DNA from: Chrysomallon squamiferum
Taxonomy: Eukaryota > Animalia > Mollusca
Assembly: GCA_012295275.1 (NCBI GenBank)
Contig: CM022670.1
Location: 39,804,001 to 39,868,000, forward strand
Direction of reading: 5' to 3'
Length of the DNA stretch: 64,000 nt
How positions within the stretch are numbered: position 1 is the stretch's first letter; the number at the start of each line of letters is the position of its first letter. Of the stretch, positions 38,301 to 50,300 are shown in pieces. The notes under the pieces are model-generated. The model saw nothing but the letters and a program-made list of their open reading frames with translations, did not search any database and had not been told where the DNA came from. The position numbers and the translations under genes are program-made.

Positions 38301-41300
38301 AGTGTTCTACAGCTGGTATTTTACACATCTATTATTTTCATTTCTTAAATGTAACTTTTTACAGTGCACTTTAGAAGATACATTTATATATATGTTATGA
38401 AAGGTGTCTTGTTGATGAAAACTGGAATTACCATTTGAATTAAAATGATACCACTCAAGCGGCACTTAATTCTGAAAGCACCTGTCTTTAACAGTTTATT
38501 AAAGCAGTCAATTTCATTTTTAATAATAATAATAAAAATTCTGGTGTAATAATCATATATATATATATATACATATTTAAAATTTACGTACAAAATATAT
38601 TATCAAAATTCACCTAAGACTGTCAAAAAGATTATTTATAGTACTTACAAGTTCCTTTCAACACCAGTCAAATCTGTAATGGCCATCTTGTATTTTTTTT
38701 TATTAAAATGTTTCTACTTCATTTTAAAATGTAGCGAGATAATTTTTAAAAACTGATAATAATTATATTACAGTGGAAAGGAACAGCCCGATCTAGCAAG
38801 CTCAACATTCGTCCATCCAATGGCCTCCTGAAACACATCTTGCAACAGTGTTACAACCATGCTGTCACTGACCCAGAGAAACTCAATCAGTATGAACCCT
38901 TCTCTCCTGAGGTTTGTCGCAGTTTCATTCATTTCTTCTTTTTTTTTCTATCACATTTTCCTTTTATTGTGTCAACTGTCTGACGTTGTTGTCCCCTCAC
39001 TGGATAAGCACCAATCACTTTCTTTGCATTTATTTTGAATCACTGACGTTTTGCGTTCTTGGAATGATACAGTGCATGTAGGGTGTTTTTTTTTTTTTTA
39101 TCAGAAAATAACGTTTTTGTGTATATTGTTTACAGTGAACTTCATCATATTACAATAATGTTTTTGTAAATTTTATAAAACTTCCTTATATGCTTCACTG
39201 ACTAATGATGTTTCTAGAATGACCTAGCATACTGAATTAAGATATGTCAGTTGCTGTTTTCTATTTAAATTTTTGTTCAGAAAATATTTTTCAGTATAGT
39301 TCGTATTAAGTCATTGTTATTGTAAATTTGACAAAGCTTATTTGTGTGCTGCAGGTTTATGGTGAAACATCTTTTGAACTTGTTGAACAGATGATTCAGG
39401 CTGTAAATTTCTCAGAAGAAGATTCTTTTGTTGATCTAGGCAGTGGTGAGTTTCATACAACAATACTGACACCCATCTAGACTGGTTATTTTTAAATTAT
39501 ATTTTAATGTAATTTTTTATCATTTTTATTATTATTTTGTTTTTATTTATTTTTTGTTTTTATTGTTATTTTATTATCATTATTTTTCTTTATATTTTTT
39601 ATTTTATTATTTTATTATTTTATTGTTATTTTATTATTTTTTTAATTTTAATTTTTCTTTTATTTATTTTATTCATATTTTTTTAAATTTAAATTATTAT
39701 TATTATTATTTTTTTTAAACATTATTTGGTCTTGTTGGTAGTGCTGAATACTTTTTTTAAATGGCAGGTGTCTTTTTGATGAAAACTGGAATTACCGTTT
39801 GATAAAAAAAATGAAACCAACTGAGCGGCATTTAATTCTGAAAGCACCTGTAATTTTTTTGGAAAAACACACTGAATTTTTAGCTATTTTTGTTTTTTCT
39901 TTTCTTTTTATTAACACGATTTTAATAAGAATCGAGAAGAGAAAGACTACGTTAGATTTCAGTACAAAAATTAAAGAAATGAGAGGATTGTATTTATAAC
40001 AAAAGAAAAAGAACAATTTGAAAATTTTAAGATATTGACAATACATTTCAAGCTGTATGTGTCATTTTTATTATTTTTATTTATTTATTTATTTATTTAT
40101 TTTTTTTTTTTTCCCCTCATGGTAATTTCGGTACATTTGAACACTAAATTAAAAAGCACAATCTTTCTCTGTTTCAGGTGTAGGTCAGGTTGTTTTGCAG
40201 GTGTCGTCAGCCACACCCTGTAAAAAATGTTATGGTATAGAGAAAGCAGAGTGGCCAGCGTTGTATCAAAAGGTGGGAGATGTGTGTTAAGAGCAGAAAC
40301 AAGCGAAAATCAGTGCAGTTATTTAACTCGTCATCGTTAAAGGAAAATATTTTATTTAGCATGGAACATATCATGGTTTTATTTGTATTTTTGTTGTGAC
40401 AGGCTTCAAAATAAGTTGAATTTTTTTTTAAAGATTATTATTATTATTATTAATATTAACAAATTATAGAAGGAAAAGATTTTTTGTTAAATGAAAAACC
40501 GAACTAACTAAATTGATTCCTTGACTACGATTCAGAGTGTAGTATGTTTTGGATTGATTTTGTTAAATATTTTCCTTTATTTATTATTGTTGATCATATT
40601 TTAGAGATCTCTTACACAGATATAATAATTCTGTCATACTTTTTGCTAGTTTCTTACTCAAACAGTAATACATTCACCTTATTAGGTATAATATAAGTTA
40701 GTGTCATCTGCTTGTTTTGAAGCCAAGATAACGACATGTACAACTGGTTTATGTATTAATAATCGTGTATTTGAAACTGATTCTATTTTAAGGAAATGGA
40801 TACCAAGTTCCGCAAGTGGATGAAATGGTATGGGAAGATTCATGGAGAATATGAGGTAATTAATCAGTTTTTATTCTTCTTGCTAACTTATAAATTCAGC
40901 AAGTTAACATTTTCAGTAACAAATAGAACATTATTTGATATTACTGTAAACTATTTGTGTTAACGTTTAAAACTTAAATATTTAAATCTGTTATGGTTAG
41001 TTAAAGTGTCGTTTTGCAATTTTTGAAGTTGTCTTTAAAATAATTTACAGCAAGAACATATTTTTAATTTATTCTATTTACCTAAAGATCATTCCAAATG
41101 TATTTGCCTTTAATTTTATAATTTTTAAATTCTTCAATTTTATAATTTCTGTTTTTTAACCAATAAAATGGATTTTTTCTAATTATTCTTTAATCTCTTC
41201 TGATGTTCAGCTAGAAAAAGGAGATTTCTTAGATGAGCAAGTGAAGGACAAATTATACAATGCTACGTAAGTAGTTTGTGATTTGTAATTAATCTTGTCC

Positions 41301-47300: not shown

Positions 47301-50300
47301 CACAAACACTTAGTATTATGGTGTTTGTCATTGTTTATCTGTTAATGTATGCAAAGACAAAAAAACATTGTTAAACCAAATTTATGAAATTTAAAAAAAA
47401 CCCTAAAAAACCAATTCTTTTGGAAATTTTTCATTTATGTTTATGGTGGTAGCCTTTTATATAAAATTGGTTTGGAATTTGGGTTAATACAGAAAGTAAA
47501 ATGTAATGTTTTACATATAAAGAGTATTTGTTGTTTGGGTTTAGGATTTAATCTATTTTCACTGTTTTGTAACTGCATTCATTGTCCTTTTTTGTTTTGA
47601 TTGTTATTTTATTTGCGTGATTATTCAATGATGAAAACTGGAATTACCATTTGATATTAAATCATGAAAAATATCAAGCGGCATTTTTTTCTGAGAAAAA
47701 AATCATTCACTAAACATTGCTGTAATCTGTACACATGATAATAATTTGTTGTTATTTTTGAACTAATGATCACTGTGATTTTTGTTGAATTCCAAAAGCA
47801 CCTAAGTTTCTTTTTATATTTAAGCTACAAAAACTAAAATTATATCAAAGAATATTGAACACCATTGTATTGACTGAAATACAGTATTTTAATCAAAAAA
47901 TTAAATAACACACACACACACACACACACCAAATCATTCAACTGTGAGCAGTTTCTAAAGCAATATTTTTGTGTACATATATTAGCTACATTTTATTCAG
48001 TTTTATAATTGTTTTTCTATTATTTTTCAGCTTGAAAAATATTTTCTACGATTAAAGAATCCTGCCATAAAGGTAATACATTAGAAAATAACCTGAATGA
48101 TACTAATTTAGTATTACAGGTTGAGAATTTTTTTTTTTTTCTGAGCTGCCAAAATAATGAAATCTTATGGTTTTCAGTGTTTTGTTGCAAACACAAGCTT
48201 TATTTTGTACTCAAAAGTATTAAAAATATTAAATAAAAAATTCTGTAGACTATTTGTATATTAATGGAATTTGTATTTAGATTTGGATCTTATTGTCAGC
48301 TTATTACCTTGCATTCCAAAAATTCCATAATCCCAAACACTGGTACCAGGCATTTTGGATAAAGGATTCTCAACATTTATTATTATTCATTATTTCTATT
48401 ACTTTATTTAATTATCAATTTATTTTTTTTATTTATATATTTATTAAAATTATTATTATTATTATTATTATTATTATTATTATTATTATTATTATTATTA
48501 TTATTATTATTATTATAAAAAATTTTTAATAAATATCATTTTTTTAACATCTTTGTTTATTACAGGAAGAAGTTCGTAGAGACAGAAAAGGACGCCCTAT
48601 TCATCCAGTAAGTACATATTGTGATCAGATAATGGAATAAAATTATTTTCAAAAATATAAGTAATAATCTGATAATTAATACTAGGTTATTAGATACATA
48701 TGGTGAATGGCACTAATGATGATAAACTGTAAGCACTATTATATCTGCATGTGTAACAACAGAGATCTTTGAGATGTAGCTTAATTATAACAAGAATGAG
48801 GGAATTCAGTTAAATTAAAAAACATATACCAAGAACACGACAATAAATAATAACAGTAGACTCATCCTGCTCATTCTAAAATTTAATTTTTGTTTTCATT
48901 ATTTTCATTATGATTATTATTATTATTATTATTATTATTTTTAATTTTGTTTATTTTTTTTTTTTTTTTTAAGGATTTTTTTCTTTCATTCAGAAACAAT
49001 TTTACAATTTGTGGGTATGAGAACACTGAAAATCATTACAGAAAAATCTAAAAATTAACACAGCTGCACATAATGAAAATATTAAAAATGTCAGTATTGT
49101 TTTCATTATAGGAAGAAAGAAAGAGTAAGCATCGCAAAGATGCGCTGTCACATGAAGATCGTTTCCACGCAGCCAAGGTTCTTGATTTTGACAGCACCAG
49201 CAACACCAGCAATGCGACAGACGAGAGTAACAGCATGTATGGGCCAACAACTAGGCGGGGATGGGCGGAATGGGTTTCACGACCCAAGTCACCCTCAAGC
49301 GGAGACCAAGAAAATGATGTGGTTAGTTTCATTGAATTTGTGGAATTTTTAATTTACTATTGTTATTATTATTTATTTATTTATTTATTTATACTGCTTT
49401 TACATTATTATAAGTTTCTGTTAAATCAATTTATTAAGTATTTTGATATTTGTATGAGAAAATTGAACTGAATTTGATGGAAAATATTTCGTTGCTTTCA
49501 ATGATGAAAACTGGAATTACCATTTGATATCAAATCATGAAAAATATCAAGCGGCATTTTCTTCTGAGCAAAAAACATTTTTTAGTCATCAATGAGGTAG
49601 TACATTATAATGTATGTTTAGTTTTAGCAGAATGACATTAACCTTTTAAATAACAGGAAATAATATTTGGGGCGATTTAACACAAATTCTGAAAACAATT
49701 AAATCAACTAAGATAAAAAGGAAGAAAAATTAAAACAAAACTGGACATTAAGTTATATATTCTGAAATGTTTGCATTAAGAGAGGCAGTTTTTATTTTAT
49801 TAAATGAAAGGACTTGGAAAGGAGTTTATGTAATTAAATGTTGTGGTTTCAGACGAATGTTGAGATCCGGAACCGCATGAGAAAGGAGAAACGCCGCAAA
49901 CGACCAACTAAGAGACTGAACGGGATGATGAGAAAACGAAATACAAATAAGGGTATGTGTTAATTTTTATTTTTTTTTTATTTTTTTTTTTTTTTTTTAT
50001 TTTAATTTTAATATTAATTTTAAGTTAATGGAAATTTTTGAATGGCATTTATATTTTGACAGAAGTAGTTAAACTGTTGCTGAGAATAATAAGTACCTCA
50101 TCTTTTTTTTGGGTGTTGGTGATGACAATAGTGTTTTGTTTGTTTGCAACTAAAACTGAAAAATTAACGTTGCTTTTAAAATAATATTTTATTTGTTTGA
50201 ATTTTAACATAAATTTAAAAAACAAAATTTCACATGACCAAAAATATTTATTTTGCAGAAGGTGTTAAAACATTGGCAAGCAAGAAGTATGGCTCACAAG

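Follow-up and report, generated by a model that had tools for sequence, protein, structure and literature searches.

Eight putative SNORD65/snR77/snoR77Y-type guide RNAs in introns of DOT1L in the mollusc Chrysomallon squamiferum

The uridine next to a key decoding base of 18S ribosomal RNA (rRNA) is the target of an ancient family of small nucleolar RNAs (snoRNAs) of the box C/D class, with snoR77Y, HBII-135 and snR77 described as the guides of Um580, Um627 and Um578 (PMC3511168). This U is methylated in all six species tabulated, namely fly, human, yeast, Arabidopsis, Xenopus and Dictyostelium, with SNORD65/snR77 as guide (PMC11014333 Table S4), and Um578 is counted among the decoding-centre modifications (PMC2794176). 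A preprint on Epstein-Barr virus v-snoRNA1 assigns G617-U627 to helix 18 and attributes U627 to SNORD65 (10.64898/2026.05.13.724956), and human G626 is equated with E. coli G530 (PMC13215694, where the table prints G567 for yeast and G577 fits Um578). In this study, we analysed a window of 64,000 nucleotides (nt) from the mollusc Chrysomallon squamiferum (assembly GCA_012295275.1, contig CM022670.1, positions 39,804,001 to 39,868,000, forward strand), in which eight copies of a candidate member of this family lie in introns of DOT1L, the gene of a histone H3 lysine 79 (H3K79) methyltransferase.

Duplication in cis is known for C/D families (PMC8178906), and the constrained-drift model expects both amplification and host switching (PMC3511168). 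The eight copies described here compare with one in human, two in fly (PMC11014333 Table S4) and four in Xenopus, which in Xenopus tropicalis lie within 3 kb (PMC6984369). Like multi-copy C/D families residing in one host (PMC8178906; Xenopus, PMC6984369), this array has probably spread in cis over several introns, with movement between introns and genes, but its copy number is higher and three of its copies share an intron. The copies resemble SNORD65/HBII-135 (RF00571), snR77 (RF01181) and snoR77Y (RF01178), all of clan CL00057, in the D' guide (C/U)UGGAAUUACC, in the target U, in size, and in having a single guide, located in the 5' half; they differ in scoring below the Rfam threshold, in their host and in a D' box that reads UUGA, as well as from plant snoR77Y in carrying a GCGGC element where the plant RNA has CUGGC. 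We put a probability of about 0.8 on the interpretation that these are intronic SNORD65/snR77/snoR77Y-type snoRNAs, likely cut from DOT1L precursor messenger RNA (pre-mRNA) and predicted to guide methylation at the equivalent of 18S Um627, with DOT1L as a mere carrier. The array is a well-kept, multi-copy representative of an already known family of rRNA-methylation guides, lodged in a new host, and both this observation and the target assignment stand; it adds a mollusc branch that Rfam thresholds miss.

The eight copies, their guide and its predicted target

The exact guide core TGGAATTACC occurs eight times in the window, always on the forward strand (38423, 39787, 41326, 44051, 44894, 45376, 47639 and 49512), and allowing one mismatch adds a single unrelated match on the reverse strand at 28376, at a setting where shuffled sequence gives a mean of 4.3. 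Every copy follows the layout (A/G/T)TGATGA, 3-4 nt, (C/T)TGGAATTACC, 2 nt, TTGA, a loop of 6-13 nt, (A/C)TGA(A/T)A, 7 nt, AGCGGCA, 7 nt, CTGA. Box C and box D are 64-72 nt apart throughout, UGAUGA and CUGA are present in all eight copies, and a purine precedes UGAUGA in six. When a sequence model built from the eight copies was run over the window, they scored 75-84 bits (by construction), followed by a decayed ninth copy (44436-44483, 13 bits, E 0.004), with everything else at 10 bits or below; a generic C/D scan of the window gave no other stem-closed candidates. The sequence-only reading that preceded this work had listed eight sense-strand intronic copies, which the exact core search, the full pattern and the model scan all recover. 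Its start coordinates are those of the terminal stems, and its pattern agrees with the layout of every copy, apart from a gap after TGATGA that is N3-4 and not N4-5.

The D' guide is predicted to select the 18S U that follows G626/G530 in helix 18 (human Um627). On eukaryotic small-subunit (SSU) rRNA contigs, all eight guides pair with GGUAAUUCCAG over 11-13 bp (11 bp in general, 13 in copy 2) at duplex energies of -15.7 to -21.3 kcal/mol, and the fifth base before TTGA is an A opposite the U of GGU, which is SSU position 574 in contig L109. Earlier it had been claimed that the guide variants keep their pairing, and this holds for the C-to-T variants of copies 4-6, which pair as U-G; the extra paired G of copy 2, by contrast, had been taken for an addition, but it is also in the Rfam snoR77Y consensus and so was more likely retained than gained. 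We assign the copies to the SNORD65/snR77/snoR77Y family from their predicted target and by transitive similarity, in that a related locus retrieved with the window's model (L009) exceeds the gathering score of snoR77Y (54.8 against 52). Both the guide match and the published methylation site (PMC11014333) agree with the proposal that these RNAs are of the SNORD65/snR77 kind, with the U beside G626 (E. coli G530) as target. The SSU contigs (L062-L109) are eukaryotic 18S rDNA within prokaryotic genome assemblies, i.e. contamination that we estimate to affect some 440 stretches; viral contigs contained no target motif.

A second site in the 5' domain of 18S, GUGGUAAUUCUAG, pairs with the copies over 12-14 nt (including G-U pairs) in three of six SSU contigs, and its pattern was matched in some form in 23 of 34 long ones. 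The U of this site would correspond to human position 157. It is unlikely to be a second target, as the table of six species gives no methylation at the equivalent U (PMC11014333 Table S4) and the extra element downstream fits only helix 18.

Box D, D', the AGCGGCA element and 10 of the 11 guide columns are invariant across the copies, whose cores are 76-97% identical, as compared with 40-60% in the 60-nt flanks and a background of 49 +/- 5%. Terminal stems are strong in six copies (-11.9 to -20.4 kcal/mol, a level reached by no more than 0.4% of 1000 random intronic pairs), which bears out the earlier remark that most copies have their own stem. Five of these (copies 1, 2, 4, 5 and 6) share an 8-pair stem with 92.5% of cells paired, against 40-50% in slid controls, and three of the eight pairs have changed on both sides. 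Invariant boxes and guide between flanks at background, together with compensated stems, are the signs of selection that had been anticipated. Copies 3, 7 and 8 are 97% identical from the TTCA before box C to the G after box D, and unrelated outside. This stretch would be roughly the mature RNA, and the confinement of the identity to it suggests that conversion or RNA-mediated copying was added to local duplication; no clear target-site duplications were found around the three copies.

These data bear on two alternatives. That only one or two copies work, the others being recent neutral duplicates on their way to decay, is in our judgement quite unlikely: a decayed ninth copy does exist, copies 3, 7 and 8 are nearly identical, the stems of copies 7 and 8 are weak, and three copies share an intron, an arrangement that in mammals gives a long RNA in place of three snoRNAs (PMC11028025), but boxes, guide and element are fixed in eight of eight copies between flanks at background identity, compensatory changes keep the stems, and homogenisation might mimic part of the conservation yet not the copy-specific stems. 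That the unit is a short transposon or satellite, with no more than a likeness to snoRNAs, is scarcely credible, even though it is repeated and one related locus (L039) shows tandem duplications that include the flanks. Within the 64 kb the copies occupy a single strand and the introns of one gene only, with no dispersal over both strands like that of a transposable element; their conservation is confined to snoRNA motifs, and across animals, relatives occupy introns of genes that are classic hosts of snoRNAs, with one passing the snoR77Y threshold.

The invariant AGCGGCA element likely serves for extra base-pairing to the stretch of 18S that adjoins the guide duplex on its 5' side, to judge from complementarity: its GCGGC pairs with the GCCGC immediately 5' of that duplex, 18S bases that form the 530-loop pseudoknot. 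A role as a second methylation guide was rejected, given that its D+5 position falls in a variable U-rich linker and that six SSU contigs yielded no long match that was consistent, in a search confined to 18S. Extraction of second regions from the window and its related loci, without requiring the element, gave 56 distinct ones, many of them paralogues; 52 reach -9.1 kcal/mol or better when paired with the 16 nt that lie 5' of the target, and three of the four weak rows were shortened by the extraction pattern. The register differs between lineages, many relatives matching GGCTGCT(GG) to (CC)AGCAGCC, others having GCGGC(T/A), and the plant consensus CUGGC fitting GCCAG, so that element sequences differ while the rRNA stretch that they pair with is one. 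In yeast, extra base-pairing raised methylation 2-5 fold (van Nues et al., PMC3116282). The elements of snR75 and snR76 in that paper are alike in being a conserved 4-11 bp match adjoining the target, placed in an unused second guide region and not abutting box D; the shifting register of the predicted element sets the present family apart. In PMC6171561 and PMC5824354, nothing was found on pairing by the SNORD65/snR77 family.

The DOT1L host and its shared introns

The host had been named as DOT1L from its letters, and this identification holds. Single exons match human DOT1L structures in PDB (E 6e-20), Pfam DOT1 is above cut-off in five of six exons, tblastn of DOT1L protein is collinear with the gene from end to end, exons with AG/GT borders leave the first 639 codons open, and Gigantopelta aegis DOT1L is the best named match (91% on exon 5), so that the animal is likely a gastropod. 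By the gene model, all eight copies lie on the sense strand in introns of this transcribed and spliced gene (introns 4, 6, 9, 10, 10, 10, 12 and 15), at distances of 162-1490 nt to the 3' splice site that follows. RNA contigs from four of four runs of one study join exon 8 to exon 9, with loose ends that extend into exons 7 and 10, indicating that intron 9, which holds copy 3, is spliced out; bridging by RNA contigs concerns this intron and the gene model the others. The runs also contain 9-14% of the words of a mostly intronic 5.4-kb stretch, a figure that carries no weight as evidence.

Copies 4-6, spanning about 1.4 kb, are enclosed by two exons that follow one another in DOT1L protein. A splice matrix trained on the window's DOT1L gave the top candidate for a hidden exon a score of 6.4 in the gap from copy 5 to copy 6, against 13.5-25.1 for true exons, and of 17.4 in the gap from copy 4 to copy 5, inside the control range of 11.4-18.7. 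In two related loci the scores are at most 6.4 in six of eight gaps (L043) and at most 2.4 in the first three gaps (L019), while L039 has two 150-nt periods without an exon candidate and five gaps at 15.7-19.2. Copies thus likely share introns, by these splice-site models, with three per single intron in DOT1L, nine in L043 and four in L019, some spaced by only about 150 nt. Endonucleolytic release of the plant or yeast type has, to our knowledge, not been described for animal introns. Animals mostly have one snoRNA per intron, and two per intron can give a snoRNA-related long non-coding RNA, or sno-lncRNA (PMC11028025). Such intronic clusters are alike in having at least two box C/D snoRNAs per intron, but the known sno-lncRNAs are mammalian and two-ended, whereas here an rRNA guide is present in three copies (nine in L043). 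Beyond annotation, the array raises two questions, namely how a single intron of an animal would release several snoRNAs and whether this family pairs additionally with the 530-loop region. A tentative, and on balance doubtful, extension would be that molluscs routinely pack tandem decoding-centre guides into single introns, freed by an endonucleolytic plant- or yeast-like cut or kept as multi-headed sno-lncRNAs that present several helix-18 guides, with the register-shifting extra element holding the 530-loop region open during 40S assembly.

Under the carrier interpretation, the copies would be cut out of DOT1L pre-mRNA and, after splicing, trimmed to the box C/D core by exonucleases, presumably with the assistance of the external stems because every copy is at least 160 nt from the 3' splice site. 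The D' guide would then put its fifth base on the target U, so that fibrillarin could 2'-O-methylate the 18S uridine beside G530 (human Um627), and pairing of GCGGC with the adjacent GCCGC of helix 18 would raise the efficiency of methylation. Local duplication and homogenisation between copies, along with losses such as that of the ninth copy, would likely have built the array in whichever broadly expressed gene the family had reached, DOT1L being a carrier and no regulatory partner.

Several observations weigh against this interpretation. Copy 3 is covered by no RNA contig in any of the four runs, a weak negative for contigs from long-insert libraries, which lose short RNAs. Rfam gives no match in the window at gathering thresholds; a relaxed search, which is as far as the proposed Rfam check bore out the family, finds snoR77Y (RF01178, CL00057) in five of the eight copies, with scores of 21-28 bits where the threshold is 52, and nothing in the other three. 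The SSU contigs were chosen by the target motif and come from other species, and hence are no test of motif conservation or of the animal's own 18S. Box C starts with T and not with a purine in copies 1 and 2, and the terminal stems of copies 7 (-5.4) and 8 (-3.8) are weak, so that some copies may be poorly expressed. The internal boxes, UUGA (D') and (A/C)UGA(A/U)A (C') in all eight copies, are both degenerate, although degenerate internal motifs can be active (PMC3116282). Stem covariation, as seen in five related sequences with the structure derived from them, is reached by 10-39 of 500 shuffles and is no more than supportive. In the copies of the window the match of the element is short, at only 5 bp in six of eight (shuffle p 0.01-0.16; 0-8.7% by rank among 18S windows), and the extra-pairing lists of PMC3116282 include neither snR77 nor HBII-135.

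DOT1L also contains a tandemly duplicated 107-nt exon (12a/12b) in its catalytic domain, flanked by copies 6 and 7. The reading frame is kept with either exon, while both together lead to a stop at codon 361, and the two are likely mutually exclusive. They are 68% identical, 14 of their differences being synonymous only and 11 changing an amino acid; the second agrees with mollusc DOT1L at 35 of 35 residues and the first is a divergent but intact variant. No paper on this exon pair surfaced in a literature listing. Elsewhere in the gene, one intron holds an imperfect tandem repeat. There are also two pairs of short duplicated intron segments unrelated to the snoRNA (by eye), indicating that local duplication is common in DOT1L.

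Relatives and hosts in other animals

When metagenome contigs were scanned once with an exact pattern, 61 loci emerged; in 40 of them the core is followed by a GCGGC or GGCTG element (two of these are probably chance bacterial matches) and about 21 lack it, many of the latter resembling chance matches in microbial genes. Hosts include RPL3 in eight loci, RPS8 in L010 (three copies), an RRM protein resembling PABP in L035, a NOP58-like Nop-domain gene in L025 and, by eye, probably L004, and BTF3 in L043 and L019 (Pfam NAC) and in L061 and L027 (tblastn). About half of the related loci gave no named host, with no Pfam match among the open reading frames searched (144 from six loci plus 31 chosen by hand). 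The BTF3 exons are nearest to heterodont bivalves, at weak resolution, and come from two probable bivalve assemblies, one of which has identical cores in BTF3 and in a Nop-domain gene. Arrays in BTF3 reach 7-9 or more copies per contig: L043 (1970-4816, reverse strand) has nine in the last BTF3 intron, and L019 (1488-4173) has seven, four of them in one intron. In L039, eight copies lie within 2.5 kb, and no exon was found. Amplification and host switching recur in the SNORD65/snR77/snoR77Y family, with arrays in DOT1L here, in BTF3 and NOP58 of probable bivalves and RPL3 among further hosts. The amplification had first been called unusual, which is not supported given these arrays, the four copies in 3 kb of Xenopus tropicalis (PMC6984369) and at least five other hosts. 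A tree of 54 rows and 69 columns puts the window copies on one side of a branch (support 92/84, not firmly resolved), which fits a separate expansion.

The same loci speak to the idea that the array was selected to couple methylation at the Um627 equivalent to DOT1L transcription and splicing, or to offset a weakly expressed host by copy number, which we consider improbable. Consistent with coupling, all window copies lie in DOT1L and none in the roughly 29 kb of neighbouring genes upstream (a RAD54-like gene, two DnaJ genes and a PDZ gene, named by inspection), DOT1L is no ribosome-biogenesis gene, two copies flank its duplicated exon pair, and intronic snoRNAs can affect host splicing (PMC11028025). 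Against this, five query proteins gave no DOT1L match among the 61 loci, broad expression is enough for hosting (PMC3511168), and translation-associated BTF3 hosts arrays as large or larger, so that copy number is not tied to a special or weak host; by inference, the BTF3 arrays argue against compensation for weak expression in particular. Host identity looks incidental, and the suggestion of the sequence-only reading that rRNA methylation dose is tied to DOT1L is not borne out; these data give no evidence that H3K79 methylation is connected with the modification of ribosomes. DOT1L was not found described as a snoRNA host in the open full-text literature, the Xenopus supplement or PMC13736004, and no paper on a mollusc snoRNA cluster surfaced in the open full-text literature.

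Three related loci carry sub-threshold SNORD70-like snoRNAs beside the SNORD65-like ones (L009 2408-2492, L049 44-125 and L018 1204-1295); no protein host was found for them, and the host gene is perhaps non-coding. The RPS8 locus L010 has further C/D snoRNAs at 4427-4514 and 4793-4868.

Coordinates and neighbouring genes

Table 1. Features of the 64-kb window (window positions; stem energies in kcal/mol)
Feature	Positions	Strand	Remarks
DOT1L, H3K79 methyltransferase, host gene	29386..61552	+	coding span; nearest named protein from Gigantopelta aegis
Copy 1	38402..38485	+	intron 4 (38316-38773); box C 38412, guide 38422-38432, D' 38435, box D end 38475; stem -13.4
Copy 2	39765..39851	+	intron 6 (39446-40177); guide longer by G, 13 pairs with 18S; stem -13.9
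Copy 3	41298..41399	+	intron 9 (41267-41805); own 15-bp terminal stem, z -3.9
Copy 4	44029..44115	+	intron 10 (41855-45594); top snoR77Y score of the window, 28 bits, E 0.07
AGCGGCA element, invariant (copy 4 shown)	44088..44094	+	7 nt before box D
Decayed ninth copy	44436..44490	+	intron 10; mutated box C, shortened guide, altered element, box D gone
Copy 5	44870..44963	+	intron 10; G-C to A-U compensatory change in stem
Copy 6	45354..45444	+	intron 10; nothing exon-like between copies 5 and 6
Copy 7	47617..47705	+	intron that follows exon 12b (46986-48030); weak stem; 97% core identity with copies 3 and 8
Copy 8	49492..49571	+	intron 15 (49322-49852); stem of 4 bp only
Duplicated 107-nt exons 12a/12b of DOT1L	46268-46374, 46879-46985	+	DOT1 catalytic domain
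Duplicated short intron segments of DOT1L	37110-37220 / 38615-38725; 42780-43040 / 43530-43810
Imperfect tandem repeat in DOT1L intron	~50520-51220		four units of ~170-190 nt; last unit ends at true 3' splice site
RAD54-like helicase gene	~17800-28370	-	by inspection
DnaJ class B paralogue	9559-10659	-	intronless; by inspection
DnaJ class B paralogue	14047-15150	+	intronless; by inspection

The RAD54-like helicase gene stands head to head with DOT1L, their start codons being about 1 kb apart, and the two DnaJ paralogues are divergent.

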